Positions 4,969-38,481 of a DNA stretch of 38,523 nucleotides are shown piece by piece. The stretch comes from an uncultured Rhodobiaceae bacterium. GTDB taxonomy: Archaea > Thermoplasmatota > Poseidoniia > Poseidoniales > Poseidoniaceae. Position 1 is the stretch's first letter. Each line of letters begins with the position of its first letter. The notes beneath the pieces are model-generated. The model was given only the letters and a program-made list of their open reading frames with translations, did not search any database and was not told the DNA's origin. The stretch spans positions 1 through 38,523 of the forward strand of contig CALDQY010000003.1 of assembly GCA_937911445.1 (NCBI GenBank), written 5' to 3'. The position numbers and the translations under genes are program-made.

Positions 4969-6726
4969 TTACTCGTCTGCAAAGACGGGCAAAATAGTGG
5001 AATCGAGTTGAAGTTTAGCCGACGCAAAGATCGAGTCAATGCTTGGGCGTTCCTCTTTGCGCTTCAATTTTGCACGGGCAGAAACGATGTTCCACGCTGC
5101 TTTTTTGCCGATGCCAGGAATGGCTTCGAACTGTTTTTCAGTTGCTGTATTGATGTCCAACCCAATCTCAACTCCCGTGATTGAACGAGCGCCATGTCCA
5201 GTGATCATGATGTTTGAAGAGGTTTCGAGCGGAATGTGATATGGAACGCCAATGAGGATAGGGTAAGCTCCGATTTGGCGACCAAAAGTGAGCCCCGCGC
5301 GTCCATGAACATGCTCACCCACGTGCTCTTCCGTGAGGTGGACTGGTAAGCGAGTCCGACCATCATGAGTCTCCCAATGCACGTCTTTGAGAATGTGACC
5401 AAGAGGGAAGAGTTCCTGAAGGAGCGGTGAATCAATCGTATCACGAACAGCCGATTTGAAACTCTTGAATTCTTTTTCTGGAATGTCTTGGAAACCTTCG
5501 CCTTCGACTTGACGAATGTTAATTCGCCGTAACAGTAAGCCTTCGTTACGTAAATCATGGAGAAGATTGAGATTCATCGAATATGTTTCCGTTCGCTCAC
5601 CGTTCAATCCCGCTATGAAATTCAATCCTGGGAGGAGTTTTGGAAGACCACGTTCTCCACGCTCTCTCCCGTATTGATTGATGAGGCGGAGAGCTGATTT
5701 GAGCTGATGTGCATCGCAATTGAGCCAATTTGCAGCATGTACATTCGGATCCGCAGACTCCAAACCAAACGACAAAACGGCTCCATCTGATAGTGTTTCA
5801 ACCAATGTCTTGGTGATTTCAGTGGAAGGTTCAATGTTTTCTGCGATGATGGATGGGTTTCCATTGTCGGTGTGAAGAATACCAAGTCGTTCGTCTTCAC
5901 GCAATCCATGAAGGAGTTTGGCAATGGGTTCTGGATTTGGAATTGGATACTCAAGATCTTTCACACCTTCAGCCATGTAGGTGTAGGTGTCGGTCATTCC
6001 ACCAAGCCGAACATGTTGAACACCAGAGTCATGCGCCAGTTTGACTTCTTGGATAATGTCCTCAGGTGTACGCCAAATGGGTATGCCTTTTTTTGGTTCA
6101 ATGCAAAACTTGCACCCACGTTTGAATCGGACGCATCCTTGGTAGACCTCGACTTCGTAGGTAAGAGGTCCACGTTTTTCTTCCGTTCCTAGATCAGGAT
6201 GCTGCAAAACCGCCTTGCTCTGTGCTCCTGAGTGTGCCCACGTTGTCCATTGTTCACTCGTTCGACGTTCGTGTTTCCATGTTCCAGTTTTGAGGAACCC
6301 ATGCAAGGTCGCATCCGTATCTTGGACAGCGAGGAAGAGATTTGAGCGGAGAGGGAGCCATCCCTGTTGTTTCCAACCACGAACGGCCCATCCACCGAAC
6401 AATGCAGGAATCTCCCGGGGCAAGGATCGAATCAATTCAGTTGATTCTCTGCGGGAAATGGGTGTTCCACGAATGTATCGGCCTGGAACAACAGCACCAG
6501 CAATGCAGACAAATCCTTCCAAATCTCGAAGGTGTTGCTCTCGTTCTTGTTCAGAATACAACCTCCACTGATCGATGGTCACGTACGTGTAGTCGATCGA
6601 GTGCTGTTCGAGAACGCCACAAACGTATCGAATATGGAATCCTACGTAAGGTGGTACGCCAAAAGCAGCAGGTTCGTCCTCGTACCCATCAAGAACGAGC
6701 CAAGAAGGAGAATCGTTCTCTACCAT
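4969..6726 (-). CDS. Radical SAM protein with C-terminal helix-hairpin-helix (archaeal COG1031 type)
   Basis: N-terminal LDGYEDEPAAFGVPPY, Cys motif CVRFKRGCKFC, LRRINIRQV, GRQIGAYPILIG, C-terminal INTATEKQFEAIPGIGKKAA (HhH). Confidence 0.85.
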   Translation of the reverse strand: MVENDSPSWLVLDGYEDEPAAFGVPPYVGFHIRYVCGVLEQHSIDYTYVTIDQWRLYSEQEREQHLRDLEGFVCIAGAVVPGRYIRGTPISRRESTELIRSLPREIPALFGGWAVRGWKQQGWLPLRSNLFLAVQDTDATLHGFLKTGTWKHERRTSEQWTTWAHSGAQSKAVLQHPDLGTEEKRGPLTYEVEVYQGCVRFKRGCKFCIEPKKGIPIWRTPEDIIQEVKLAHDSGVQHVRLGGMTDTYTYMAEGVKDLEYPIPNPEPIAKLLHGLREDERLGILHTDNGNPSIIAENIEPSTEITKTLVETLSDGAVLSFGLESADPNVHAANWLNCDAHQLKSALRLINQYGRERGERGLPKLLPGLNFIAGLNGERTETYSMNLNLLHDLRNEGLLLRRINIRQVEGEGFQDIPEKEFKSFKSAVRDTIDSPLLQELFPLGHILKDVHWETHDGRTRLPVHLTEEHVGEHVHGRAGLTFGRQIGAYPILIGVPYHIPLETSSNIMITGHGARSITGVEIGLDINTATEKQFEAIPGIGKKAAWNIVSARAKLKRKEERPSIDSIFASAKLQLDSTILPVFADE

Positions 6727-6802
6727 GATGACCGTCTTGACTTCCGCTTGATAGCCTTATGTCCCCAGATTCCGTGGACTAGGCTGATTTGTGAGAATGA
6801 GA

Positions 6803-8155
6803 TCATCGGCGTTGCTTCTTCCGCTTCTCTTCAGCGATGGCCTTGAGTTCTCGAGCGGATTTTCCGCCCTGCCCCTTCTTCTTGCCACCTGCTTGCGAGA
6901 TGTCGACCTTCAATCGTCGACCGTTGAGTTCCTGTCCATTAAGGGCCTTAACGACGTCCTCGCCCTTGTCTTTCTCATCGATGAAGACAAACGCAAATCC
7001 TTTCGGTTTTCCTCCTTTATCGGTGGCAATAGCGATTTCTGTGATGGTGGCCTTGTCGCCAAAGAATGCTGTGATGGCTTTCTCGTCTGCATCGAATGGA
7101 AGGTTGCCGACGTAGAGTTTGAGCCCTTTTGCCGGACCTTTCGAACGCTTCTCCTTATTGTCTGCATCACGAACACCGATTCGGCGTCCATGAAGACGGT
7201 GACCATCAAGTTCATTGATGGCAGCATCCGCATGTGCCTTGTCTGTGTACGTCACAAATCCAAATCCTCTTGAGGCACCAGAATCATCGGTCATGACAAT
7301 GCAATCGGTCATCTCGCCATGCTTACCAAAGAGTTCTCGGAGTTTTTCAGTGTCAACCTCACGAGGCAGGCCACCGACAAAGAGACGACAACCAGGAGCA
7401 GCCTTTCGTCCACGTCCTCCTCCACCTCCTTGACCTTCAAATCGGAAGTAGGTACGTTCACGTCCATCTTCTCGAACGTCAGCAGCGATGTAGGTTGCCC
7501 GGCCGGACGATCCTTTGGCAAAGAGTTGCTCTGCGTCTTTGCCCCAACGCTTTCCAGATAGATTCAGAGTTGAAGCGCCTTGTTCGAGTTCTGCCCAGCC
7601 AGCACCGAAGTTGTCTGCGAGTGCACGGTAGCCTTCGTATGTACAACTTGGACAAGCAACGTTCCAGTCTCCATTGACATGGGCTTGCAGTGTATCACCA
7701 CACGATGGACAAATCGCGTGGAGTACGCCGCAATCGTCGCGCTCACGGAAGTCGAGCCGAACCACAGGTTCAATTTCGGTCACAACCGCTCGTGCAACAT
7801 CTCGTCGACGGACGGCATCAGCAACGGTGTGAAGGAATCGGTCGACAATTCGAGTCACGTGAAAGTGACCTTGGAGTTGATGTGGCAATACGTCGCCCTG
7901 TTTCCCTTCAACAACAAGGATTCGGGCTTCTCCCCCTTTTTCTTGCAGTTTCTCGAATTGGCAAAGAACCGTATCTCCAATTTCGATGTTGACGATGGAT
8001 TTTGATGCATCAACAATAACGTGGCCATCATCGATTCGCACGTATCCTGTCGTTGTTGCAACGATTCGGTTGTCAACTGTCGTCGTTCCTTCGCCGGCTT
8101 GATGTTCGCCAACGGTTCCAATCTCTGTTCCTGGGGTGACGAGGCTCGTCGTCAT
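6803..8155 (-). CDS. csl4: Exosome RNA-binding cap subunit Csl4 fused to two C-terminal RRM domains
   Basis: Csl4 N-domain (LVTPGTEIG..AGEGT), S1 domain (IGDTV..HVTRI..D.V.A.V), Zn ribbon CPSC-x15-CPSC..R.LA. Then RRM1 (LFVGGL / RGFGFVTY) and RRM2 (LYVGNL / KGFAFVFI). Lies downstream of METTL5, a typical archaeal csl4 context. Start placed at ATG 8155. Confidence 0.85.
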   Translation of the reverse strand: MTTSLVTPGTEIGTVGEHQAGEGTTTVDNRIVATTTGYVRIDDGHVIVDASKSIVNIEIGDTVLCQFEKLQEKGGEARILVVEGKQGDVLPHQLQGHFHVTRIVDRFLHTVADAVRRRDVARAVVTEIEPVVRLDFRERDDCGVLHAICPSCGDTLQAHVNGDWNVACPSCTYEGYRALADNFGAGWAELEQGASTLNLSGKRWGKDAEQLFAKGSSGRATYIAADVREDGRERTYFRFEGQGGGGGRGRKAAPGCRLFVGGLPREVDTEKLRELFGKHGEMTDCIVMTDDSGASRGFGFVTYTDKAHADAAINELDGHRLHGRRIGVRDADNKEKRSKGPAKGLKLYVGNLPFDADEKAITAFFGDKATITEIAIATDKGGKPKGFAFVFIDEKDKGEDVVKALNGQELNGRRLKVDISQAGGKKKGQGGKSARELKAIAEEKRKKQRR

Positions 8156-8251
8156 AATTTCAACTCGCTGCACAAGCCACCGACGCAGCGGTAACGTGTG
8201 CTGATTTGATGCGAGCGCTGCTCCCTTTTCAACCCCTCACATGGGTTTGCA

Positions 8252-8872
8252 TCAATTCTTCTTCGCAAGACGATAGCATCGAATTCGAGTAGAGGACTTG
8301 TTTTTCGTGTGATGTGCATAGGCCGCTGGTAGCCGGAAATCGTCCTGATAGATCGAATGAAGCTCATACCCGTTTTCGTGTGCGAGTGGCAACAAATGCT
8401 CAGCATCGATGCTGTGTATGAAGTGAATGAGGGGAATCTTCATCGAAAAGAGGGTCTCGAAAAATGCCCTATCCGCTCGTGGGGTTTGGACGCCCCACGG
8501 CGGATTCATGATCGCCATGTCAACAGGTTTGTCAAGTTCGATTGGATGTCCATTCACTCGACTGTTGATGACGGTACAGATGGACTCGCCTTCAACCTCT
8601 CGAACATTGTGTTGAAGTACGTCAAGGGTGGGTGCATCGCACTCGACCATGGTCACATGTTTCGCTCCTAGAAAGGCAGCACCGATTCCAAGAACACCGT
8701 TTCCGGCTCCCAAATCAAGAACGTGTTTGTCAGTAAATCCGTCACCAAGATCAATCTTGGTAAGCCAAGCAGCCGCAAGGTTTCCCTCCGTTGGGTATTG
8801 TTCAAGTTCAACGGATTGACACGGGTGAGGCTCAAGCGATGAGAGTCGCATCGCCAGATGCCGTTGACGCAT
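8252..8872 (-). CDS. METTL5-family (COG2263) N6-adenine RNA methyltransferase
   Basis: LEQYPT, VLDLGAGNGVLGIG (motif I), MNPPWG (motif IV), AYAHH tail. ATG 8872 preceded by GGTGA overlapping the upstream stop. Confidence 0.88.
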   Translation of the reverse strand: MRQRHLAMRLSSLEPHPCQSVELEQYPTEGNLAAAWLTKIDLGDGFTDKHVLDLGAGNGVLGIGAAFLGAKHVTMVECDAPTLDVLQHNVREVEGESICTVINSRVNGHPIELDKPVDMAIMNPPWGVQTPRADRAFFETLFSMKIPLIHFIHSIDAEHLLPLAHENGYELHSIYQDDFRLPAAYAHHTKNKSSTRIRCYRLAKKN

Positions 8873-8876
8873 GCAT

Positions 8877-9116
8877 TCACCAACGACGTTGCTGTCCAAA
8901 TTGCTGGTTGAATTGCTGCTGTTGTTGCATTTGCGCGTTGAATTGGGCTTGTTGCATGGCCTGTTGGTTGCTCATCATGAGTGCAATTTGACGAATCTGT
9001 TCAGCTTCCATGCGAAGGCGCTGAATCAATTGTTCACCTGGTTGCTGATTGCCACAAAACCGGCAGAATCGCATTCCATCGTTCAAAGATTGTCCGCACG
9101 TCACGCAGAATGCCAT
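8877..9116 (-). CDS. Small zinc-ribbon protein with Gln-rich C-terminus
   Basis: MAFCVTCG-x7-RFCRFCG zinc ribbon, GGTGA SD at 9121-9125, tail MSNQQAMQQAQFNAQMQQQQQFNQQFGQQRRW. Confidence 0.8.
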   Translation of the reverse strand: MAFCVTCGQSLNDGMRFCRFCGNQQPGEQLIQRLRMEAEQIRQIALMMSNQQAMQQAQFNAQMQQQQQFNQQFGQQRRW

Positions 9117-9159: not shown

Positions 9160-10221
9160 TCACTGGACCGATGTTAATTCCATGAAGACAGGCCAGGTTT
9201 CGAATCCGACAGCCGCTGCTCGCTCGTTAATCGGTTCCCAGCGTGGGTCATCGACCATGTCGCTCGGCTCAACGCCGTTGGCCATGAGTTCGGTAACGAG
9301 AGCCCTGAACTCAATCTCGATTTCTGTTTTCGGTTCTTCAACAAGTTCCGGGACTGCTACTTCAACTTCTCCGGTGACGTCTGCCGTTGGCAAAGGAACA
9401 TTCGCTTCTTCCAATTCGTCACCTGCAGCTTGCATTTCTTCGAAGCCGTCGGTTGTTGCTTTTGTAATCGCTTCAGTGACGGATTGTGGTCCCTCGGGCG
9501 ATTCCGTTTCAATCACAGGAAGCGGTACGGATTCTTGCTCCGGGATGGTGACATCTGCTGCTTCAACTGTATCGGATCCAGGAGATTGCATTGGCTCTGG
9601 AGCAGGTGCAGCCGGTTCTTCTACAACGACAGGTTCTGGTGTTGCAGGTTCTGCAGCACGACCTACGCCGAGAATTTCTGCCTGTTGTCGAGCCAATTCC
9701 GCCGCCTGTCGGCGAGGAAGACTTACGAAGCACTTGTTCGGGATTGACGTCGGTGGAAACGGAAGATAATACCGTTCAATCGCTGGAAGACTTGGGTGGC
9801 GAAAACAAATCATGGTGATGTTCTCGAATGCTCTTTGAGCAGGAACGTCCACTGAGAATGGTACGGGTTGAATCGAGATCGAACCACGAACCCACTTTTC
9901 ATTGGTGATCATATGCTGCATCCACGGTCCTAAGTCCGTTGTTGCGAGGTCAAGGAATTCAAATGAGGCGTCTCGTGGGTTCAAGCCTTGTTCTTCCAAC
10001 AAACGAGCCTCTGCACGGGGACGGTGAAACACGCCAATCACTGGCTGACCATGCTCGACCATGTCGCCGTGCATTTCGAGGATTTTGCGTTCTTTTCTTG
10101 GACAGATAAGCATGACTTGCATACGCAATGCTTCAGCATCGAAGATGTCGTGCCAACGCTCTTCGGCCTCAGAAAGGAGCCCATCGATGGTTGTTCCCGG
10201 AATCATTGCTGTTATGCCCAT
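9160..10221 (-). CDS. Hypothetical protein (globular N-terminus, acidic Pro/Glu-rich linker, short helical C-terminal domain)
   Basis: 353-aa ORF co-oriented and tightly packed with its neighbours. No family motif recognised. Confidence 0.7.
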   Translation of the reverse strand: MGITAMIPGTTIDGLLSEAEERWHDIFDAEALRMQVMLICPRKERKILEMHGDMVEHGQPVIGVFHRPRAEARLLEEQGLNPRDASFEFLDLATTDLGPWMQHMITNEKWVRGSISIQPVPFSVDVPAQRAFENITMICFRHPSLPAIERYYLPFPPTSIPNKCFVSLPRRQAAELARQQAEILGVGRAAEPATPEPVVVEEPAAPAPEPMQSPGSDTVEAADVTIPEQESVPLPVIETESPEGPQSVTEAITKATTDGFEEMQAAGDELEEANVPLPTADVTGEVEVAVPELVEEPKTEIEIEFRALVTELMANGVEPSDMVDDPRWEPINERAAAVGFETWPVFMELTSVQ

Positions 10222-11310: not shown

Positions 11311-11401
11311 GTTCCAGTCTCATGCTTCGTCATTTTAGTCCCTTGCATTGTAAAATTGCTGCAAAGCATATCTTCAAGTGCTCGACATTCAAGGCACCCT
11401 C

Positions 11402-11842
11402 ATGGAGAACACCATCACCATCGAAGCCTTTGCCCACTGTGACGGCCCATGTGGCGTCTACGACCCTGCAAGTGCACGTGTTGCAGCAGAAGCCGTGCAA
11501 TCAATGACCAAGAAAATGGTAGCATTGAGCACCGGCGATGCAGACAAGTCCGCTGCCTCCTACATCAACACGATGAGCCGCTACGCAGCTATCAAGGAAG
11601 AAGAAGCACAGAAGTGCAAAGACGAACTTCTCGTCCTCTGGACAGATTTCTTCAAGCCTCAACATCTAGAGGCAAATCCAGATCTTCACACAACGTTTTG
11701 GATGGCTGCAAAACTTTGCTCAGCGTGCAAGGTTGAAGTCTCCGAACAACACGCACAGGAGTTGATGGATGCTGTTGAAGCCATTCACAACATGTTCTGG
11801 GCAACCAAGGGGCGAGACGTCTCTTGGGTCCGTGCAAGTTGA
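11402..11842 (+). CDS. sodN: Nickel superoxide dismutase precursor
   Basis: Ni-hook HCDGPCGVYDP after a short leader (MENTITIEAFA). Also KEEEAQKCK..L.VLWTDFFK, KLCSACK and FWATK. Confidence 0.95.
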   Translation: MENTITIEAFAHCDGPCGVYDPASARVAAEAVQSMTKKMVALSTGDADKSAASYINTMSRYAAIKEEEAQKCKDELLVLWTDFFKPQHLEANPDLHTTFWMAAKLCSACKVEVSEQHAQELMDAVEAIHNMFWATKGRDVSWVRAS

Positions 11843-17032: not shown

Positions 17033-18106
17033 TCAATTCGAGTGGTCAAGCGCCATATCGTGCAAGGCGATGAATTCGCCATCAACTCGAGCAAGACGTA
17101 ATTGAGTGGCACCATCATAGTCCCATGGAAGACGAACTGAGGTCATTTGCCAGGTATTTGGGTCTAGGAATTCGGCTGCAGAATCATCACGATTGAGAAT
17201 ATCCACGACGATGTGGTCGTTCATCTGCGACAATACTTTCACGCCATCAAGATCTCTCCACGTTGCACCTGTGCGTTCTTGGCGAGAAATACGCTCCATA
17301 ATGGCGCCATCCTTGCTCCAAGAACTCGGCCGCCACAATTCGCCTCGCCAACGAACAACGTCACCGAGGTCGTAACCGGGCTTTCGATAGAGAAGCGTCA
17401 GTCGTGTAACATCGACACCATCTTTTCGTCCCACTGTCGAATTCGTTTCTGTGACTTGCCCGCCCCAGTTCTCAATCAAATGGCGCCCCCATGCACGGGC
17501 AAGTCCTTTCGAACCCATGACAACATCGTATCCACCCGTAACGGGACCTTCATTGGTGATGAAAAACATTGGATCATCGCTGAGTTGTTCGATAACATCG
17601 TCAAGACTTGCGCGTAGATTGTTGAGTTCGCTTTCTTCCAGTCTGCGACCGGTTGAGCGAAGTTGAACAGTCGCCTCGAAATAATTTCCAGCTCGCCGTG
17701 TGCACGTTAAACACACACCGTTTGAACGGCGAGCTCTCATGGTGTGTTCCTCAGTGTACAAGAGATCGTCAATGACCCCCTCCATCTGCATGTGGAGCAA
17801 CGTGTGTCGATCTGAAACCGTCCTAGGTTCGAATCCCAAACCGATTTCTTCGGCTCGTTCGTGGAACGAAACGTTGCGCTGAATCAACTCGTCCCACAAC
17901 GTATCCTCTGGGATGTTGACCCAACGGCCTTGAATATCGATTAGTCCACAGCGAGCACATTGCGTAAAATTCGTGTTTTCGGGGACAATGGCAAGTTTGG
18001 TTCGCTTGCGTGTGCATGCTTCACACATTTTGTCGGTGAACAGAGGTGGCTCGTTGCCGCACACGAGGCAAAAATCTCCACCTAGTCCGCGACTCAATGA
18101 ACTCAC
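17033..18106 (-). CDS. nmd3: NMD3-family ribosome biogenesis protein
   Basis: CLVCG..CEAC and CARCG..CLTC zinc knuckles, GNYFEATVQLR, GYDVVMGS, VGRKDG..R.T.L.R.P. Confidence 0.85.
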   Translation of the reverse strand: MSSLSRGLGGDFCLVCGNEPPLFTDKMCEACTRKRTKLAIVPENTNFTQCARCGLIDIQGRWVNIPEDTLWDELIQRNVSFHERAEEIGLGFEPRTVSDRHTLLHMQMEGVIDDLLYTEEHTMRARRSNGVCLTCTRRAGNYFEATVQLRSTGRRLEESELNNLRASLDDVIEQLSDDPMFFITNEGPVTGGYDVVMGSKGLARAWGRHLIENWGGQVTETNSTVGRKDGVDVTRLTLLYRKPGYDLGDVVRWRGELWRPSSWSKDGAIMERISRQERTGATWRDLDGVKVLSQMNDHIVVDILNRDDSAAEFLDPNTWQMTSVRLPWDYDGATQLRLARVDGEFIALHDMALDHSN

Positions 18107-20310: not shown

Positions 20311-21363
20311 ATGGGGCAGTTGTATCTTACAACATTCGGAGCCTCTGAATGGATTATTCTGAGTGTGTGGATTCTCGCAGTTGTGTCTCCCATTGCGTAT
20401 TCTATCCGAAACAAGACGCCGATTGCGCTGGGGATTTCCGTTGGGTTACTGCTGGGTTACATCGTCCAATACGCGTTTGTTGTTATGGCTTCGTACGGTC
20501 TTGAGTTTCGGTTCGTATGGTTTGACTTCTGGCTGATTCCTGAGCGATTGGATTCCGTTGTCTACTACCCAACCCTGTTCACAGCAGGCTTCTTGCATAG
20601 CATGAGTGATGTGACGCACGTGCTTGGTAATGTTTTGGTCATTGCTTTGGTGGGCATTCCTCTTGAACAACGCTTGGGAGCCAAACGCTTCACAGTCGTC
20701 TATGTGACAGGATTGCTCGGAGGTTCAATTGCCTGGGTCTTCTTCAACAGCGGCTCAGGAACACCATCATGGGGCGCTTCAGGAGCTGCATATGGTCTGC
20801 TCGGAGCATACCTCTCTGGCTGGCCTCGTGATGAAATTCCATTCCCTCTCATTTTGATCCGGCCTTGGCCGGTTACCATCATTGCCTTGTTCTATTTTGG
20901 ATTTGAGTTGGTACGAGCGTTCAACACGGTTGGCCTCGGTGGTTATTCCACCGTTGCCCACATGGCGCACATTGGAGGATTTGTCGCTGCTTACGCTTTG
21001 CTTCCATTGGTGGCAAGAGGCGGGCCATACCCATTGGGTATTGTCGATGGAGGGCCGAAAGGATTCGGACATTCAAGAGCTGGATTTGACCAGATCAAAT
21101 CATCCATGGTTGATGTATCTGGCATCGACGACCCATGGACAGAACTTGGACTTGACGTTCCGAAGAATCTACGCGAGCCACTTCGAAAATTGAAGGAAGC
21201 TGGAGATGAAGCGGAAACGCGAATTGCATGGATGGAGCACATTGCCGAGGCTGGCGACTGCCCTGTTTGCCTCGCCCCATTGGGCATGGTCGAACGCCGT
21301 ACAGGGCCCCAACTCCAATGTTCGAAAGAACCGAAGCACTTGTCATGGCCAAAGCATGGATAA
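20311..21363 (+). CDS. Rhomboid family intramembrane serine protease with C-terminal soluble extension
   Basis: FTAGFLH..HVLGN, G.PLEQRLG, GASGA (catalytic Ser), AHMAHIGG (His). C-terminal CPVC...C..H. Confidence 0.9.
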   Translation: MGQLYLTTFGASEWIILSVWILAVVSPIAYSIRNKTPIALGISVGLLLGYIVQYAFVVMASYGLEFRFVWFDFWLIPERLDSVVYYPTLFTAGFLHSMSDVTHVLGNVLVIALVGIPLEQRLGAKRFTVVYVTGLLGGSIAWVFFNSGSGTPSWGASGAAYGLLGAYLSGWPRDEIPFPLILIRPWPVTIIALFYFGFELVRAFNTVGLGGYSTVAHMAHIGGFVAAYALLPLVARGGPYPLGIVDGGPKGFGHSRAGFDQIKSSMVDVSGIDDPWTELGLDVPKNLREPLRKLKEAGDEAETRIAWMEHIAEAGDCPVCLAPLGMVERRTGPQLQCSKEPKHLSWPKHG

Positions 21364-21424
21364 TCAGGGCCAATCAACACACGTTGGAGCGATACCATCA
21401 AAATATATCGATTTGTGGTTGGGT

Positions 21425-24400
21425 ATGGCGATTATGCGCGGATGGTCTCATCACTCAAATCCAAGGCAGGCGTTGTTCTTGGTTTTGCTCATGCTTTTGC
21501 TGCCTATGGCATCGCAAGTTCAGGCGATAGAAACGCTCCCTGAGACACAAGAACCAACACACGCGCCTCCAATTCTGGTCGAAGGCTTGCCACCGCTCAT
21601 GTGTGGTGAGGAGTTGTGTGACCGACCACTTAGAATGTACGACCGTCAAGGGCGAGATGCCGCTTTGGATTATGGATGGTGGCAGGCCTATGGCCCAGAC
21701 CTCGACTGGAATGGTATGGATGACCGTCTTCAGCGTGTTCTAGACGGAATGGATTCTGTATCACCAACAGCGATCATTGGTGCAGACGGGCGAAAGACTG
21801 TCGCAATCGTAGTAGATTATGCATGGCACCCCTCAGAACCAGAAATCCAATCACTCAAATCAACACTTGAAGCACATGGCTGGGTTGGTGTGGAAAATGG
21901 CGCATGGTTTGAAGTGCTCAGGAGCATTGACAGCATCGTTGTTGACAAGGTTCCGGTTTCAGCTCTGATGGACATCTATCACCTTGAAGGGGTTGTCGTC
22001 ATAGAGATGCAAAACGTCATGGCTCCAGTGAATGACGTCGCTGCAAAAGCAGCTTTAGCACGTCCATCTCTGGAGTATGGGAACACTGCAAACGAACTCG
22101 GTTACTATGGAACAGGTGTCGTCATAGCAGTTATGGATACAGGTGTTGATAACGAACACCGCTCTCTCAACGACTTTGATGATGTTGATGATGCGCCAGA
22201 TGCAGATGCTTCGACATACAGCGATCAAAAGTGGGTTGCAGGTTTTGATGCAACATCTCCCAATCCGAATCCAGATGGCTCCACAGATCCCGATGATGGT
22301 AACGGTCACGGAACACACGTTGCAGGTTCGGCACTGGGTACGGGGGATTCATCGCGTGTTCACAGAGGAACAGCACCTGGTGCTGCTTTGGTTGACATCA
22401 AAGTCCTCACAGATGGCGGAGGAACCAATTCACAAGCGAGTCTGGCAGGCATTCAGTGGATGATCAACAACAAAGATACGGACTGGGGAATCAATTCGAC
22501 GTACCGGGGTATCCAAATCGCTTCCATGTCTTATGGTTCGGTTGGCACACCGCTCAACTCTGGTGACCAAGGTGATAACGGGACAAGCGCAGAAGCCTCA
22601 CTCATCAATCAAGCGACCGCTGAAGGCATTATTTGCGTTGTAGCTATCGGTAATGACGGCAGCAACAGAGTGCCTTCTCCTGGAAGTGCTGATGGCGCAA
22701 TAACAGTTGGCTCAGTGAACGACAAGAATACGATTCTAAGAGACGATGATGAGCATTCAGATTTCTCAAATTGGGGTCCACGACTTAGTGATGGAGACGA
22801 TGACGAGTGGGATGAACTCAAGCCGGATATTACCTCTTACGGGCACAACATTGTTTCAGCGACATATGGTACATCGCTCCCAATCCCCGGTGACACAGGA
22901 CTTGCGGACGACCAATACGATTCAAAGTCGGGAACGAGCATGGCAACTCCTATTGCATCAGGAGTCGTTGCTCTGATGCTGGAAGCAGATTCCACCCTTA
23001 CGCCTCAAGAAGTCAAGGATATTCTTCGAAACAGTTCCGAACAAAGAGGAGATCCATACGACGAATCCTTGTCAGAAAGGTGGAATGATAAATACGGATT
23101 TGGAATCATTGATGCAGCATGTGCCGTCAATTCAATTGAGGGAAACCCTTGTGACAACGGGTTTGTGGTAAAAGAATCCAAGAGCGATGTCAATGTTAGT
23201 TATCCTTCAAATGGCACTTGGCTGTTGAGTGATTCATTCACTCGAATTTCTGGAGAAGTCAACATGACCGAAATAGATTATCAGCGCGTTGAGTTGTACA
23301 TCGAACAGCATTTCTACGACAGAGGGCCAAAGATGCTCATGAATTGGACTGAAGCTAACGGGTCGATGGAAAATTGGTTCCTTGATGTTGAGATTCAAGA
23401 TTCATGGGTCGATTACAGCTCAAACGAGAAATTCTTACTCCTCCAAGCCAAAGCCTCCGACGATGATGGTAATGTCTCCAACGTGGCATATCGAAAGTTT
23501 AAGGTGTCTCGTGAAAGTATTTTGATCGATACGCCAATTTCGCGAAACGCCTTATCCGGTACCGTTGAAGTCAAAGGTGAAGTCGAAGGCGTGGAGCATG
23601 AACGAATTGAGTATCGCGTGGATGATGGTGACTGGTTGTTTGGTAGTTCAATCCAGACAAACAACAATCCTGGCGATGATGGAAAATCGAGTTGGTCCTT
23701 CAATTGGGACACAACTGAAATTGATGATGGATTCAGACAACTTTCTGTCCGAATGGTCAACAACTCTGGAAAAGAATCACAAATCGCTCAGAGAAGTTAC
23801 ACCATCGATAACATAGAACCTGCCCCATCGCTTCGATTTACAGGAGATGTCGAGGTACTGAATCGAGGCATGCCTGCAGAAGAAGCGTATCAAGGAAGTT
23901 TACTCGAGCTCAAATTCGACGTCTACAATGCAGGCGATGCTGATGCCTCGGATATTTTCGTTCGATTGGTTGCCCCTGGCGATGAATCTGAAGTGTATCC
24001 TTCGCAAGGGCTCATCCCTGAACTTCCGAAAGGAGAATCGGTTCAGGTTACATTGTTTTGGTCAGCGACTGTCGCAGGATCGCATGATGTTCGAATCGAA
24101 CTTGACCCGAACAACGCACAAGGAGACCCTGATACCTCGGACAACGTGTACGTTTTGAATTATGAAATTCTACAACGACCAGATCAACCTGTACTGCGCT
24201 ATTTGCCCGGATTCGTCACCACCTTGCCCGTTGTGCCACTTGTTGATGAAGAATACAAAATCGACATACGGATTGACAACCTCGGCAAATCGGAAGCATT
24301 CTCACTCGACATCGCACTCGAGTATTGGATTCCTGAGGCTGGCTGGCAATTGATTGACGAAGAGCGTGTTGGATTTGTTCCAGGGGCTACCAGTGAATCG

Positions 24401-26275
24401 GGTTACACCATGGTCGATTTTAGACACCAATCGGAGAAGATAGGCGCAGTACTCTACCGTGCTACGCTTACTGGAGATGGTGTCGAAAGTGATTACAGCC
24501 AAACAACGTTCAGTGTCATTGTCAGTGATGTATCAACCGTTGCAGGTTCAACCACACTTTCCCTCTCGGATGGTGAATACCCGGTTGCATTCGTAGGCGT
24601 AGAATCCTCAACACTCGTGTTTACTTCTGTCGATGGAGAACTTCATGCTCGGTCTTTGAATGACAACCTTTTGCTTCTTACAGACACGCTCGTTGACGAC
24701 AACTGGGAAGGGGAGCTCGATGTTTATCTCAGAGATGACGGATTGGTACATGCTGCATGGACGAGCCGCCAACAAACTGAGCAAGGATATTTTATGACCA
24801 ACATTGCCATGACTTCTTTTTCTCCTGCAGGGCAAATGCTCCCTATTCATACGCATCTTACACCTCTAAAAATCTCCGAGGGCAAATATTGGGGACTTGA
24901 TTTGACCGAAGATGATGGGACCATGGTCTTGTCTGGATACCACCGAAATATCTCAACGGGTGGTTCTTGGAGCGATGTCACTTCCATTTTCAGTTTGCAT
25001 TCTTCCTCACCAGATGTGGGCGAGAGTTGGAGTGAACCAAAGACGCATCTTGCAAACGTAGAGATTCATCCTGATGATGGTGACAAATTGTCAACTGTCC
25101 TTGATGATGAGATTTTGCACATTCTCTTCCAACAGGAACGAGACGATGTTACGGGTGTAGAGAGAAGTGGATTGATGTATACAAAAGGTGACCTTTTGTC
25201 TGCTTCATGGTCGTACCAGTCTTCAATTGGAGATGATGCATCTTCTGCACAAATATCGATCATCAACATCGATAATCAAAAAACCATCTTCGCATCTTGG
25301 ATTGAAGGTTCTGGTCAAAATGCAGAGATTGTAACGATTGCTACACAAGGTGATTGGGATGAGGATGTACATCGTGTTCAGGCACCGGGCGCAACCATTC
25401 TCATATACACTCAACGCAATGATATGGTTGAAGTGATTTACGACGAAATCACAGTCAGAGGAAAAGTTGCTCGCTATGGGATTCTGACAATTGACAACGA
25501 GCAGCCGGTTATTGGCCTTGGTAACATTGTATCAGAGAACGGAGTTCTTGGTTACAGTATGAATAACAAGGATGGAATTCTTTTCCTTGTCTCTGAAACA
25601 GGACGATTCTCAATGCAGAAGTTCCTACTCGATGAAGAACAAGAGGCTGGGGAGTCAAAATCCTTACTTGAGCAATTGTTGGAGCCTCTACCTGGTTCGG
25701 ACGAAACGAAGGTGAGGATATTCCTTGGCCTTGTTTCAGTCCTCTTCATTTTGTTTGTTCTTGTTGTGATTTCTCTCCGATCTGGCAGAAAAGAGGATAA
25801 CATCGCTGATGCGGCCATCGTAGAGGAAGACGAAGTTGCCATCCTCGTTCAGGTTGAAGAAGATGAGCAAGAGGAAGAATTGGTTGCCACAGTCCCAATT
25901 ACTCCTCCTGTACAGGTCGAGATGGAGGAACCCACGCTCGCAGCTGAACTGGAAGCAAAGAGCATTGCTGGCGAAGGGAATGCACGATTGAATCGTCGCA
26001 TGAAGAGGAAACAAGATCGTGAGATAGCAGAGATTGTTTCCAAAGGACTGCCTCCGTTGCCAACTCCAACACCGTTACCGGAACTACCAGCTGCCGAAGC
26101 ATTACCACCTCTACCTGTAGCAGAGCCCGGAACTGGTGCGCTACCGCCATTAGCAGATTTGCCTCCTCTTCGTCGCCAGGCGGTATGCCCCTCATGTGGC
26201 GCAAATTTCCCGGTAACCGATTTGATGCGGGCTCAAGTGATGTGTCCAATCTGTTCAGAAAGATTCAACCTTTGA
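21425..26275 (+). CDS. Large membrane-anchored S8 (subtilisin-like) serine protease with Ig/CARDB-like domains
   Basis: Signal-peptide-like LFLVLLMLLLPMASQVQA. Catalytic VMDTGVD, HGTHVAG, GTSMATP. CARDB-like V.N.G..DA..LDP.N..DN. TM IFLGLVSVLFILFVLVVISL, then Pro-rich tail and CPSC..CPIC. Start 21425 or 21434. Confidence 0.9.
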   Translation: MAIMRGWSHHSNPRQALFLVLLMLLLPMASQVQAIETLPETQEPTHAPPILVEGLPPLMCGEELCDRPLRMYDRQGRDAALDYGWWQAYGPDLDWNGMDDRLQRVLDGMDSVSPTAIIGADGRKTVAIVVDYAWHPSEPEIQSLKSTLEAHGWVGVENGAWFEVLRSIDSIVVDKVPVSALMDIYHLEGVVVIEMQNVMAPVNDVAAKAALARPSLEYGNTANELGYYGTGVVIAVMDTGVDNEHRSLNDFDDVDDAPDADASTYSDQKWVAGFDATSPNPNPDGSTDPDDGNGHGTHVAGSALGTGDSSRVHRGTAPGAALVDIKVLTDGGGTNSQASLAGIQWMINNKDTDWGINSTYRGIQIASMSYGSVGTPLNSGDQGDNGTSAEASLINQATAEGIICVVAIGNDGSNRVPSPGSADGAITVGSVNDKNTILRDDDEHSDFSNWGPRLSDGDDDEWDELKPDITSYGHNIVSATYGTSLPIPGDTGLADDQYDSKSGTSMATPIASGVVALMLEADSTLTPQEVKDILRNSSEQRGDPYDESLSERWNDKYGFGIIDAACAVNSIEGNPCDNGFVVKESKSDVNVSYPSNGTWLLSDSFTRISGEVNMTEIDYQRVELYIEQHFYDRGPKMLMNWTEANGSMENWFLDVEIQDSWVDYSSNEKFLLLQAKASDDDGNVSNVAYRKFKVSRESILIDTPISRNALSGTVEVKGEVEGVEHERIEYRVDDGDWLFGSSIQTNNNPGDDGKSSWSFNWDTTEIDDGFRQLSVRMVNNSGKESQIAQRSYTIDNIEPAPSLRFTGDVEVLNRGMPAEEAYQGSLLELKFDVYNAGDADASDIFVRLVAPGDESEVYPSQGLIPELPKGESVQVTLFWSATVAGSHDVRIELDPNNAQGDPDTSDNVYVLNYEILQRPDQPVLRYLPGFVTTLPVVPLVDEEYKIDIRIDNLGKSEAFSLDIALEYWIPEAGWQLIDEERVGFVPGATSESGYTMVDFRHQSEKIGAVLYRATLTGDGVESDYSQTTFSVIVSDVSTVAGSTTLSLSDGEYPVAFVGVESSTLVFTSVDGELHARSLNDNLLLLTDTLVDDNWEGELDVYLRDDGLVHAAWTSRQQTEQGYFMTNIAMTSFSPAGQMLPIHTHLTPLKISEGKYWGLDLTEDDGTMVLSGYHRNISTGGSWSDVTSIFSLHSSSPDVGESWSEPKTHLANVEIHPDDGDKLSTVLDDEILHILFQQERDDVTGVERSGLMYTKGDLLSASWSYQSSIGDDASSAQISIINIDNQKTIFASWIEGSGQNAEIVTIATQGDWDEDVHRVQAPGATILIYTQRNDMVEVIYDEITVRGKVARYGILTIDNEQPVIGLGNIVSENGVLGYSMNNKDGILFLVSETGRFSMQKFLLDEEQEAGESKSLLEQLLEPLPGSDETKVRIFLGLVSVLFILFVLVVISLRSGRKEDNIADAAIVEEDEVAILVQVEEDEQEEELVATVPITPPVQVEMEEPTLAAELEAKSIAGEGNARLNRRMKRKQDREIAEIVSKGLPPLPTPTPLPELPAAEALPPLPVAEPGTGALPPLADLPPLRRQAVCPSCGANFPVTDLMRAQVMCPICSERFNL

Positions 26276-31326: not shown

Positions 31327-34300
31327 TCACAAATCCAAATCATCCAGTAGGTCGGAGAGATTCGTGTCCTGATTCGATGGTGGAGTCATTGAAGGTGTCG
31401 GTTGATAGGTAGGTGCAGGTGCTTGATTTGCTGCCAGATATTGCTCACCATAGTACGCCCATTGTTCCATGGTCCAACCAGCCGGCAGGCCAGTGGCTGG
31501 GAGTGGAGGGCCTTGATTCACGACTGGCTGTTCAACAAACGGTTCTGGTTGAACAGGCGCTTGTGGTGCTGGCTGCTCGTATGTGGGCAATTCCGAAGGC
31601 GCATAACTTGGTAAGGGCGTTGTATCCCATGCTTTGTTCGATGGAGTCTCGACCAAATCTGGCGGTGAACGGCGAGTGATGAGCAGGAACGATGCCAACA
31701 TGATCACCAAACCAACGAGTCCTAGAATGACGATCGACATGGTTTTAGAGACACCCAATGTATCGCTGAACTCTTCGATGAATCCTTCAGGGGGCGGTTC
31801 TGCAACATCGATGGTAAGCGTAAATGTGTCCGTCGAAAGATCGTCATCGGTTACAGTGAGGTTGATCTTCCACGTGCCAACCGGTAAATCGGTTATCGAT
31901 ACTACAGGCCCAGTTTCACCAAGGTCATTCTCGCCTCTCCACTCAAATGTCCAAACGTAGAGCATGTTCAGCAGATCTGAATCTGAGTCCGTTGTCCCAT
32001 CGGATGAGAGGTTGAGCGTATCGCCCTTCACGAGGTTGTCAAGTGATCCGTTGGCGAACGAAATCTCTGCGCCCGGCAGGACGTTCTGAACTTTGACAAC
32101 AGCCGAAATCGATGCCATGGCACCATCGTCGTCCTTCACCCATGCCGTAACGGTTCGGAACTGAGGGTTGCTGGTCTCCCATGTGTACTCAAAATGAGTC
32201 CCACTCACATCGCAGTCATTGTTCAAGGTGCCATCGAGGTCCGCATCACGTGTTCCGTCGATATCCCAACAGACTTCCAGTGAATCCTTGTCTGAAGCCG
32301 TATCATCAACAGCGACGTCAAAGACCACTTCGTCGTCTTCATCAACCGTAAGGCCTTTGTTGACAGCGTTGAGGAAATTCGCTTCTGCTGTCATGGTTGG
32401 CGGTACGTTGACAATTGTGACCTTTGCGAGCGATGTGGAAGAGGTCGCTCCGTCGTCATCAACAGCACGAACTGAGATGATGTGTTCTCCAGACGTTGGC
32501 CACGAGGTTGAAACATCGGAGGCGGAACCATCAGTGGATACGGTGAAATTATCGAGAACATCACTTAGGTTCCAGTCGATGATGAGTCCATCACGGTCGT
32601 TGAGTGTATCATCGCCTTGGGCACGAAGAATGACGGTCTGATCCTCTTGGAGTACCCAGGTTCCATTCGCATCGAATGGTGTGTTTACGCCTGCAATCCA
32701 CACGCCAATTTCGCCGATGGTTGGGGCTACATTCAGAACTTCAATCGATGAAAGCACTTCGGTTTCTTCGCCATCATCGTCGGTTGCGATGGCACGGATT
32801 GGCATCGTTCCCTCCTCAAGTGGCGAAAACGTACACGTCGGTTGCGTTAACCCTTCAAGACAGTTCAAATCTGGCCAAGAAATACTGACCTGCTGGCCCG
32901 ATGGAGATACTGTATCAATATCGCCGCTATCACTGGCATCGATGGTGATGGAGGATTCGACAGCAATTTCCGGTGGGTGGCTGAGGTTGATGTACGGTGC
33001 TCGATTCAGGATGGTGACATTGCTGATCAAAACAGTTGAGTCAAGTTCATTGTCGGTTACAATGGTTCGCAATTCCCAGTCACCGTCGTCAGACCAGTTC
33101 CAACTGATAGCACAATCTGGCGTTGTAATGACATCGACAAGACCTGGACGTGATTCAATTTCAAATCGGCACTCGACGTCTCCACCATCAGGGTCAAAGG
33201 AAGAACGGGCGTCAATGAAGACGTCCTCGAACGTGTAATTCCCAGTGTCGATAGCAATGGATGCGTTCGGTGCACGGCCGATGAAGACGTCAACAGTAGC
33301 TTGGTTGTTGCTTCGATTGGCGTCTCCGGTGATGAGCTCATCCGGATCAACGGTGAAGGTCAATGTCTGGTTGCCGATGGTGGAATCTTCAGGAACAATC
33401 CAGTCGATTACAATGCGTTGCTCACTGTACGCCTCGATGGATGGAACAGCCTGTCGGCTCGAATCGCCATCGGGCACAACAATTTCCATTTCTGTTGAAG
33501 GCGATGGCAAAACACCTCTGTTTTGGGCTGGTAGAGAGAAGGAGAGTTCGTCACCGGGCAAGGCGTTGTATCCGATCGATTTGGACAGGGTCGCAACCTC
33601 ACCATCGCGAGTTCGAGTAACGATGATTGAATCTTCTTGAGCAACCAAATCGATACCTACAACAGACAAATCGATGACAACCGTGGCAACGCCAATGATT
33701 TCCTGAACTGGATCCCAGACTATCACGCCGTTGCTGCTAAAATCATCGCTAGCGATGGTGTCATCGACGACGTTTGAAACATTGATTGTCTCTTCAATCT
33801 GTCCACTGCTGTTGGTAGTTGGATTAATCAGCGTTCCCGCCATTTCGTAACGCAACTGGAGGTTTTTGTTGACCTCTGGTATGCCGTTTGGAGCAACCGA
33901 GTAGGTTGCATAAATCTTTGATTCTGAGTCTGGTAATGTAGCAATAAATTGAGTCTCAACCTCAATGTCGACGTTCCGATCGCCCGGGTTTTTTCTTTTG
34001 TCAACGCCAAACGAGTCAACGGGTTCGTAGTCTTTCAAGAGCCAATCAATGGTGAAACCAGCAGCGTTTGAGATTCGTATCCAAGAGTTGAATCGAACAG
34101 CGGGACAGTACCAATTAAACCCAGCACTGACGCCTGTGGCGTTCCATTCGTTGACTTTGTACGAATCATCGCATCCTTCGTACTTGATGTTCTGTCCATC
34201 TTCCGTTGGAATTCCATCCTTGGTGACCTGCCAAGATGTATTTTCGGCTCCTTGAGTATCAAACGAGGTCGGGTCGAAGTAATCAGATGAACCACTTACA

Positions 34301-38436: not shown

Positions 38437-38481
38437 GCATATGCTTAGATGTTCTTGCACATCAAAGGTGCGACGATGGCC

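Follow-up and report, generated by a model that had tools for sequence, protein, structure and literature searches.

The window, by which we mean the whole 38,523-nucleotide stretch of DNA analysed here, encodes an archaeal exosome cap protein, Csl4, that continues in the same reading frame into two RRM domains, and this fusion is shared almost throughout the order Poseidoniales. We propose that the RRMs form an arm, tethered to the exosome cap, that captures RNA, which at a probability of roughly two in three is the best explanation of the data. An initial annotation of this DNA had suggested a built-in substrate-targeting arm; the idea survives as the most plausible reading, with a precedent in the engineered protein Csl4-NT (PMC4227792), and is put forward here as a proposal.

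The csl4-RRM ORF (6803..8173, minus strand) is stop-free throughout; translated from the ATG at 8155, it yields P0001, a protein of 450 aa. Homologues begin with the same M-T-[TAS]-S-L-V-T-P-G, so the gene limits first assigned, 6803-8155, are correct, and the motifs quoted with them (LFVGGL/RGFGFVTY, LYVGNL/KGFAFVFI, CPSC...CPSC, and GGGGGRGR) are all present in the translation. P0001 starts with Csl4, which is followed by a conserved extension (~55 aa) and a Gly/Arg tether; the two RRMs come next, and a basic tail ends the chain (Table 1). Rfam and tRNA scans of the whole window gave no match.

Table 1. Features of the csl4-RRM gene and its upstream neighbour, in window coordinates.
Feature	Coordinates	Strand	Basis or remarks
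Whole csl4-RRM coding sequence	6803..8155	-	450 aa + stop; uninterrupted ORF; ATG matches homologue starts
Csl4 core, aa 5-183 (ECR1_N aa 5-42, S1 barrel, Zn ribbon)	7607..8143	-	NF034126, ECR1_N, AF2, Foldseek
Zn-ribbon cysteines C149, C152, C168, C171 (CPSC...CPSC)	7643..7711	-	Invariant in alignments
Order-specific conserved extension, aa 184-240	7436..7606	-	L197 N198 .. G201 x R203 W204 ... E209 ... D226 x R228; alignment
Gly/Arg tether, aa 241-255 (GQGGGGGRGRK...)	7391..7435	-	Translation; G/R-rich, length-variable in alignment; pLDDT <50
RRM1 (RNP2 LFVGGL, RNP1 RGFGFVTY)	7178..7384	-	PF00076 78.5 bits, E 6e-22 (genome search)
RRM2 (RNP2 LYVGNL, RNP1 KGFAFVFI)	6908..7117	-	PF00076 57.9 bits, E 2e-15 (genome search)
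Lys/Arg-rich tail, aa 420-450	6806..6898	-	K-S-x-R-E-L-x-A-x-x-E-E, then basic run; alignment
Small methyltransferase gene (MTS domain), upstream of csl4	8252..8899	-	Pfam MTS, E 1.5e-10; conserved neighbour

The N-terminal part of P0001 is archaeal Csl4 (NF034126 / PRK09521), as had been claimed. P0001 exceeds the 90-bit cut-off of the NCBIfam Csl4 model NF034126 with 97 bits (99.8 bits in the genome search), aligning over profile positions 2-178 of 180, and the match to Pfam ECR1_N, the N-terminal ring-anchoring domain, is likewise above threshold (29.7 bits; cut-off, 27). Csl4 and RRM_1 both exceed their cut-offs, in NCBIfam and Pfam respectively, which places them on one chain, as the initial annotation held. 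The four Zn-ribbon cysteines are invariant in 40 of 40 aligned family members, and again in 36 of 36 in a second alignment. The AF2 model of the Csl4 core has pLDDT values of 82-93 over blocks 11-180; in Foldseek the model is best matched by 2ba1_A, a chain of the archaeal exosome (E 3.7e-16, target-normalised TM 0.62). Pfam EXOSC1 matched just 6 of the 23 family members scanned. The identification rests on a full-length profile match, the domains, the four cysteines, and the presence of exosome genes in the genome. Like Csl4 of Archaeoglobus fulgidus (PDB 2BA1 chain A), the window protein has the N-terminal domain, the S1 barrel, and the four-cysteine Zn ribbon; unlike it, the window protein carries ~265 extra C-terminal residues made up of the extension, tether, two RRMs, and basic tail.

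The genome encodes the other parts of an exosome. Its only Csl4, by NF034126 search, is that of the window, and contig C190 holds an Rrp4-like gene (170.6 bits, below the model cut-off of 200) followed by two adjacent RNase_PH genes, Rrp41 and Rrp42, whose absence would have told against the annotation. DnaG is found on contig C250 (353.7 bits with NF003108, whose cut-off is 300) and is also encoded in the three relatives checked. The gene pair of methyltransferase and csl4 recurs in four of four sister-family loci examined, where Csl4 is 182-186 aa long; because the same pair is seen there, the fused and unfused Csl4 proteins are orthologous in position.

A survey of the order, proposed with the initial annotation, found Csl4-RRM fusion matches in 119 of 121 Poseidoniales genomes, closed genomes included, distributed over three families (f1, 58/59; f2, 2/2; f3, 58/59). 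All 32 loci fetched, each from a different genome, have a single stop-free frame of 407-598 aa with an RNP1-type motif, and alignment of 23 of them showed Csl4 and RRM regions together in that one frame. RRM_1 was found in 23 of 23 proteins scanned and, among the matches listed, in all of at least 120 database homologues, some of which lie on closed or near-closed contigs of 1.08-2.37 Mb. In one family of the order (f3), a treble-clef Zn finger and one RRM replace the two RRMs. The junction itself is bridged by independent DNA contigs from other sequencing runs, one covering 6700-7748 with 3 differences (X2) and one covering 7344-7846 with 2 differences (X7). That the ORF is an artefact, whether an assembly chimera or a frameshift merging two genes, is refuted by the one-frame architecture of the fetched loci, by its recurrence on closed or near-closed contigs, and by the bridging contigs; the fusion is not a chimera, in keeping with the initial annotation. 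Contigs from RNA libraries (X15, X16) cover parts of the gene at ~90-95% likeness, which is not proof of transcription, and one 482-nt RNA-library contig spans 7368-7843; gaps in the coverage by such contigs carry no meaning. A joint in X7 that links 7025 with 8128, seen in a single contig with just 28 letters on its shorter side, was disregarded, as such joints often come from other organisms or repeats.

The residues between Csl4 and the RRMs had been described as a ~70-aa linker. The Gly/Arg stretch is there as described, but aa ~184-240 are a conserved, lineage-specific module and not a mere linker. Four of its residues (G201, R203, W204, and D226) never vary across the three families, and conservation reaches at least 90% at L197, N198, E209, and R228. 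A profile of the extension run against 1.84 billion proteins gave 25 matches, nearly all from the same family or its fragments. The extension alignment had no Pfam match at E<0.05 (best E 0.059), its best match among PDB sequences had an E of about 0.9 (0.93), and an ESM Atlas search with aa 181-252 gave no usable match. AF2 predicts short helices at aa 181-210 (pLDDT 74-80); because pLDDT falls below 50 at aa 215-218 and 220-252, the tether is probably flexible. A complex prediction of the Csl4 core and extension (aa 1-255) of a relative, G044, with its DnaG gave a score of 0.00 and a mark of 0.32, which is uninformative either way.

The window RRMs are canonical RRM_1 domains in which the aromatic residues of RNP2 and RNP1 are kept. 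Pfam PF00076 matches two stretches of the protein at 128.7 bits against a cut-off of 20.7 (E 7e-38), both domains have the beta-alpha-beta-beta-alpha-beta fold in the AF2 model (aa 257-330 for RRM1, aa 345-419 for RRM2), and Foldseek also matches the model to tandem-RRM proteins. The RNP1 residues G386, F387, and F389 of RRM2 are at least 90% conserved across the order, which suggests that the RNA-binding face is under selection. Given this conservation of RNP residues, we infer that the RRMs would bind single-stranded RNA. The best PDB sequence match of the pair is the poly(A)-binding protein 6r5k_D (123.7 bits); we do not assign the pair to the poly(A)-binding-protein family, as TIGR01628 scores 96.9 bits against a cut-off of 497 and hnRNP A1, HuD, and Sxl match too. 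The present data lend no support to the poly(A)/U-tail binding or the cold-adaptive RNA chaperone role that the initial annotation raised as possibilities. The tail motif aligns in the rows of f1 and f2, with an RGG tail in its place in f3, and a helix is predicted at low confidence for aa 434-449. At a pTM of 0.43, the full AF2 model leaves the arrangement of the domains uncertain, including whether the RRM sheets are free or occluded.

Based on these features, we propose the following route by which the arm could act. The N-terminal domain would anchor the fusion on the Rrp41-Rrp42 ring, as in solved Csl4 exosomes, so that the RRMs would hang from the cap by the disordered tether. By binding single-stranded RNA through the intact aromatic residues of RNP1 and RNP2, they would concentrate RNA 3' ends around the entry pore, and substrates could thereby be selected, or processed faster, whether in phosphorolytic decay or in tailing, its reverse. 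An engineered protein offers the nearest parallel: in Hou et al. 2014 (PMC4227792), the N-terminal RNA-binding domain of DnaG was placed on the C-terminus of Sulfolobus solfataricus Csl4, and the exosome into which the resulting Csl4-NT assembled outpaced the plain Csl4 exosome in degrading poly(rA)30 and A-rich RNA. The window protein likewise has RNA-binding domains, here predicted, in cis at the Csl4 C-terminus; whereas Csl4-NT is a man-made construct whose RNA-binding domain has another fold and is known to prefer poly(A) (PMC4227792), the Poseidoniales fusion is natural and built on RRMs. Archaeal DnaG is itself a Csl4-dependent, RNA-recruiting exosome subunit (PMC3672285; PMC4227792). 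An RRM arm would similarly give the Csl4 side of the cap extra RNA-binding capacity, but the arm is covalent and DnaG is a separate protein, bound non-covalently. Since DnaG is retained in the genome, the RRM arm would be an addition on top of it.

Eukaryotic exosomes have RRM adaptors, RBM7 in NEXT and Nrd1-Nab3, which are separate proteins and act through the Mtr4 helicase. The proposed arm would resemble these as an RRM protein that delivers RNA to the exosome; the likeness is an analogy, homology being shown for the RRM fold and no further.

We assign a minor share of probability to a different use of the same parts, in which the RRMs, RGG stretches, and basic tail act as a tether or scaffold that holds the exosome on one class of RNP or RNA, such as pre-rRNA or ribosomes, or that clusters exosomes with RNA. 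The long RGG-rich linkers and tails of f3 and the basic tail with K-S-x-R-E-L kept in f1 and f2 are consistent with such a role, as is the constant attachment to Csl4 of a module content that varies by family, from two RRMs to a Zn finger and one RRM. In Sulfolobus, moreover, Csl4-bound DnaG binds rRNA strongly and enables rRNA tailing (PMC4227792). Against a dedicated tether, a tandem pair of RRMs whose RNP motifs are intact binds single strands generically, and the present data identify no target RNA or particle.

It is improbable that the two functions stay independent, with the RRM part acting like stand-alone RRM proteins and the fusion merely co-regulating the two halves, or with the chain being processed. 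Stand-alone proteins of this kind do exist in the phylum. Sister families have, besides their 182-186-aa Csl4, a separate small RRM protein of 84-120 aa; at the 4 loci examined its gene has different neighbours each time, none of them related to the exosome. In another Thermoplasmatota family (f20), 20 of 24 genomes have an RRM match and 5 of 24 a Csl4 match, and the presence of RRM proteins in genomes most of which are without a Csl4 match points to exosome-independent roles for such RRMs. Our phylum-wide sample was drawn from Thermoplasmatota; in it, small stand-alone RRM ORFs occur in 37 of 165 non-Poseidoniales genomes, this being the only other RRM context seen, and the view taken at the outset that RRMs are uncommon in archaea fails for this phylum. 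What argues against independent functions is the situation within the Poseidoniales, where the sole RRMs of the window's own genome (PF00076 search) are those on Csl4 and where, in the sampled genomes, each RRM match among the matches listed lies inside a long Csl4-bearing frame. The fusion has also been kept over three families together with a conserved junction module, and its retention in nearly all genomes of the order speaks against a neutral fusion, since some lineages should then have lost it by splitting.

The window RRMs are similar to the domains of small prokaryotic Rbp-type proteins (NF058537, 'Rbp_regulator'; cut-off 100 bits, with 106.9 bits reached here as the sum of the two RRM stretches inside the 450-aa fusion), but the architecture differs, for those proteins are free-standing and ~80-160 aa long and the window has two RRMs joined to an exosome subunit. 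RRM1 is 43-51% identical to stand-alone RRM proteins of 81-147 aa, of which the few named ones are bacterial, and 41% identical to the sister-family archaeal RRM protein. An RRM tree built by a quick method from 98 columns, without a eukaryotic outgroup, supports the groups of f3 RRM (98), sister-family RRM (99), f1 RRM2 (89), and f1 RRM1 with f2 (94). Its deep branches are weak (77), and we make no firm choice between internal duplication and two acquisitions, or among bacterial, archaeal, and eukaryotic donors. Long Csl4 frames outside the order (316-747 aa) proved not to be fusions: in the six longest, which were fetched, the additional residues come from stop-free DNA upstream (67-73% G+C), and just 4-40 residues follow the end of the Csl4 profile. 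A search for long relatives (322-2000 aa) of sister-family Csl4 scored none, which is weak evidence.

We regard it as very improbable that the RRMs are protein-binding or auto-regulatory modules that bind no RNA and instead control access to the cap pore or dock a further factor. Weak matches to Pfam RRM_occluded, seen in 12 of 23 family members at E up to 0.01 (best 3.6e-8), would fit such a role, with the window protein at 27.6 bits falling below the cut-off of 30, as would a conserved extension of no known role adjoining the tether. The RNA-contacting aromatic residues of RNP1 and RNP2 are, however, present in both RRMs and conserved, and the RRM_1 score is far over its cut-off.

The initial annotation knew of no description of this architecture. 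Our literature search likewise found no description of a Csl4-RRM fusion, but the claim of novelty does not extend to public databases, which already hold the fusion proteins, named plainly Csl4 or, at JGI, 'nucleolin'.

The archaeal exosome is the model for the core of the eukaryotic RNA exosome, and to our knowledge what is understood of how it picks substrates comes solely from work on Rrp4, Csl4, and DnaG in a handful of cultured thermophiles. The present fusion adds a natural, strongly conserved, putative RNA-binding arm in cis on the cap, shared by an entire order of planktonic archaea that have not been cultured. These proteins form a clonable set for asking how added RNA-binding modules alter exosome specificity, with useful contrasts between full length and truncations, between two RRMs and a Zn finger with one RRM, and between the fusion and unfused sister Csl4 with its free RRM protein. 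The extension with its invariant G-x-R-W is a new conserved module, and RRM proteins are commoner in Thermoplasmatota than textbook accounts of archaea would lead one to expect. A more speculative, Rosetta-stone reading, to which we give only a small chance, is that the stand-alone RRM proteins of the sister families and of other Thermoplasmatota are unrecognised trans-acting exosome adaptors and that Poseidoniales hard-wired their adaptor to Csl4 through a G-x-R-W docking module. If that were true, archaea would have their own version of the RRM-adaptor logic of eukaryotes, and family-specific module swaps would retune which RNAs the exosomes of these abundant ocean archaea destroy or tail.

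A single open frame spans window positions 6803 to 8173 on the reverse strand, and translation from the ATG at 8155 yields the 450-aa product P0001. The coordinates proposed by the initial annotation, 6803-8155, hold because homologues in other genomes share the starting motif M-T-x-S-L-V-T-P-G. As that annotation had read from the sequence, Csl4 and two RRMs lie on one chain: the NCBI Csl4 model NF034126 covers aa 5-183 (profile positions 2-178 of 180; 97 bits, cut-off 90), Pfam places the exosome N-terminal domain ECR1_N at aa 5-42 (29.7 bits, cut-off 27), and Pfam RRM_1 matches two stretches (128.7 bits, E 7e-38). The translation contains two CPSC motifs, the GGGGGRGR run and the RNP2/RNP1 pairs LFVGGL/RGFGFVTY and LYVGNL/KGFAFVFI.

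This fused frame is a real gene. RRM_1 is found on all of the best 120 of 1000 protein-search matches to P0001, 119 of which are 449-528 aa long with query coverage of 93-100%, and some homologues among the matches listed come from contigs 1.08, 2.04 and 2.37 Mb long. Csl4-RRM matches occur in 119/121 Poseidoniales genomes (58/59 in the window's own family, f1; 2/2 in f2; 58/59 in f3), and the two genomes lacking one are each 93% complete. A chimeric junction, the concern raised at the outset, was not found: an RNP1-type motif lies in one stop-free frame of 407-598 aa at 32/32 fetched loci, the Csl4 and RRM parts share that frame in all 23 of these that were aligned, and contigs from two other public sequencing runs bridge the junction (X2, 1057 nt, 6700-7748, 3 differences; X7, 503 nt, 7344-7846, 2 differences).

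What had been described as a linker between Csl4 and the RRMs is in its first stretch a conserved module of three families, and only then comes the Gly/Arg run that the description had included. In alignments of 23 and of 40 family members, in which the four Zn-ribbon cysteines are invariant, the stretch directly after the ribbon is conserved in f1, f2 and f3, with G201, R203, W204 and D226 invariant and L197, N198, E209 and R228 at least 90% conserved. When 1.84 billion representatives were searched with a profile of this extension, only 25 proteins matched. In ten of them, 387-487 aa long, it lies near residues 174-266; 13 are 66-277 aa long, the five inspected being truncated or frame-shifted fragments of the family, or fragments attached to unrelated sequence; the last two are multi-stretch hits in long proteins, the one inspected being a low-complexity repeat. 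The extension alignment found no sequence relative in Pfam or the PDB.

An AlphaFold2 model from the 40-row alignment has a mean pLDDT of 75.3 and a pTM of 0.43, low enough that its domain arrangement is not to be relied on. Within the model, the Csl4 core reaches pLDDT 82-93 over blocks 11-180, aa 181-210 form short helices (74-80), aa 215-218 and 220-252 fall below 50, and two beta-alpha-beta-beta-alpha-beta RRMs occupy aa 257-330 and 345-419 (about 70-82), with a low-confidence C-terminal helix. Foldseek ranks the archaeal exosome chain 2ba1_A first (E 3.7e-16, target-normalised TM 0.62), ahead of the tandem-RRM proteins Sxl, hnRNP A1 and A2/B1, HuD, HuR and PABP. Sequence comparison puts the RRM pair nearest poly(A)-binding protein 6r5k_D (123.7 bits), with hnRNP A1 (87 bits) next.

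Beyond the extension the families differ: in f1 a short run of Gly/Arg leads to two RRMs, and the tail combines K-S-x-R-E-L-x-A-x-x-E-E with a basic run; in f3 the RGG region is longer, a CxxC...CxxC block precedes the single RRM, and the tail is of the RGG type. The f3 block (C-T-L-C-G...V-P-F-K-P-T-P-G-K-P-I-R-C-R-D-C, alignment columns about 300-345) replaces RRM1 and has long RGG repeats on either side (loci L021-L029 and L037-L040); Pfam zf_Tbcl_2, 'probable treble clef zinc finger', matches 13/23 proteins, the number of f3 rows (best E 3.3e-13). RRM matches per genome in the phylum sample number two in f1 and one in f3; one of the two f2 genomes has two RRMs and the other one.

The window's genome (2.04 Mb in 318 contigs, 87.5% complete) has the ring genes on which the initial exosome reading depended, Rrp41 and Rrp42, adjacent to Rrp4 on contig C190. 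Archaeal DnaG is on contig C250, whose end truncates the gene (NF003108, 353.7 bits, cut-off 300). Searching this genome with NF034126 found no second Csl4, Rrp4 being the only other match, and an RRM search returned the two on Csl4 as its sole RRMs. The fused csl4 is in the orthologous position, since the upstream methyltransferase gene recurs next to csl4, with MCM ahead of the pair, in 4/4 loci examined from other families of the class, whose Csl4 is 182-186 aa long. A bacterial-type ribonuclease PH is also encoded, at C13:5537-5920 (L003:1456-2277, +; TIGR01966, 236 bits, cut-off 141.5), giving this archaeon a second phosphorolytic 3'-5' exonuclease alongside Rrp41 and Rrp42. The radical-SAM protein encoded beside csl4 has no NCBIfam match and is an uncharacterised enzyme, possibly directed at nucleic acid.

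Features of the window, with csl4 and its neighbours first
Feature	Position	Strand	Remarks
csl4-RRM (P0001)	6803-8155	-	450 aa
Radical-SAM protein with C-terminal helix-hairpin-helix	4969-6726	-	585 aa; directly downstream of csl4
Small MTS-type methyltransferase	8252-8899	-	directly upstream of csl4
Gln-rich protein with N-terminal zinc ribbon	8877-9116	-	79 aa; upstream of csl4
Acidic protein	9160-10221	-	353 aa; upstream of csl4; no Pfam or NCBIfam match
Nickel superoxide dismutase, Sod_Ni	11378-11842	+	E 2e-46
Archaeal NMD3 homologue	17033-18106	-	E 1.8e-35
Predicted giant surface protein, S8 subtilase + CARDB domain	21206-26275	+	1689 aa
Predicted giant PKD/CARDB surface protein	31327-34911	-	1194 aa
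Predicted giant PKD/CARDB surface protein	34936-38460	-	1174 aa

In the sampled genomes, the frame lengths of RRM and Csl4 matches across the phylum confine the C-terminal extension and RRM fusion to Poseidoniales, where they are near-universal. RRM_1 occurs in 72/201 phylum genomes (35/36 Poseidoniales, 37/165 others); its frames are always 436-598 aa in Poseidoniales, except for a 301-aa frame at the end of a contig, and 80-158 aa in every match listed from elsewhere. Csl4 is matched in 175/201. Outside the order, nine Csl4 frames reach 316-747 aa; six were fetched as candidate fusions and rejected, their surplus being upstream stop-free sequence of 67-73% G+C, with only 4-40 residues after the Csl4 match. 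Among the matches listed from the sister families f4 and f5, which we take to be Marine Group III, Csl4 lies in frames of 185-294 aa and RRMs in separate frames of 57-193 aa, on different contigs where a genome shows both. The six sister-family RRM ORFs inspected are 84-120 aa long, of the type M-S-x-N-I-Y-V-G-N-L-P...R-G-F-G-F-V-E-M.

RRM1 and RRM2 are 34% identical to each other, and 41% and 30% identical, respectively, to a free RRM protein of a sister family. The nearest small free-standing RRM proteins in the database are 43-51% identical to RRM1, the few that are named being bacterial (Pseudomonadota, Anaerolineae, WOR-3, Ohtaekwangia); Foldseek identity to solved eukaryotic tandem RRMs is 21-36%. 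In a quick tree built from 77 RRM domains, the groups are distinct, without a resolved order of branching. On these comparisons, a prokaryotic source of the RRMs appears the more likely.

Hou et al. (PMC4227792) fused an RNA-binding domain to the Csl4 C-terminus; the fusion still assembled, and it broke down poly(rA)30 and A-rich RNA more quickly than the exosome with plain Csl4. The natural protein has the same topology as that engineered construct, its RNA-binding part being C-terminal to Csl4, and on this likeness we propose, with a probability of roughly 0.65, that Csl4-RRM is a tethered RNA-capturing arm; we infer every step past the identity of the domains. The anchor and S1/Zn-ribbon would remain at the cap; behind them come a disordered Gly/Arg tether and two RRMs whose RNA-contacting aromatic residues are intact, and the arm would feed single-stranded RNA to the cap or hold it there. 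DnaG is the known Csl4-dependent RNA recruiter (PMC3672285). Because DnaG is retained in the window's genome and in the three relatives checked, the RRM arm would supplement it and not replace it.

Alternatively, the RRMs may tether the exosome to one RNP or RNA class, they may bind protein or have a gating role, or the Csl4 and RRM functions may be independent. The boldest reading extends an exosome role to the relatives, taking their free RRM proteins as adaptors. Against this, sister-family RRM genes have variable neighbours, none exosome-related at the four loci examined, and in f20, another Thermoplasmatota family, RRM genes are present in 20/24 genomes but a Csl4 match in 5/24, with genomes up to 97% complete. 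This means either that f20 no longer has an exosome cap or that its Csl4 has diverged strongly; its matching genomes (e.g. G182, G192, G207, G212 and G227) have one to three small RRM ORFs each. That the fused ORF is an artefact is dismissed by its unbroken frame across loci and by the independent contigs over the junction.

The fusion sequences are already public, named simply Csl4; source names include 'exosome complex RNA-binding protein Csl4 [Candidatus Poseidonia sp.]', the same with '[Euryarchaeota archaeon]', 'hypothetical protein' and, at JGI, 'nucleolin'. A full-text literature search, with most subscription journals outside its scope, found no description of the Csl4-RRM fusion, in keeping with the early supposition that the architecture was undescribed, and a term search of a 2024 survey of S1-domain proteins (PMC11641769) finds Csl4 mentioned and no RRM. 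What appears to be new is that a known subunit of the complex has a lineage-wide and previously unremarked RNA-binding arm, together with a new conserved module at the junction.
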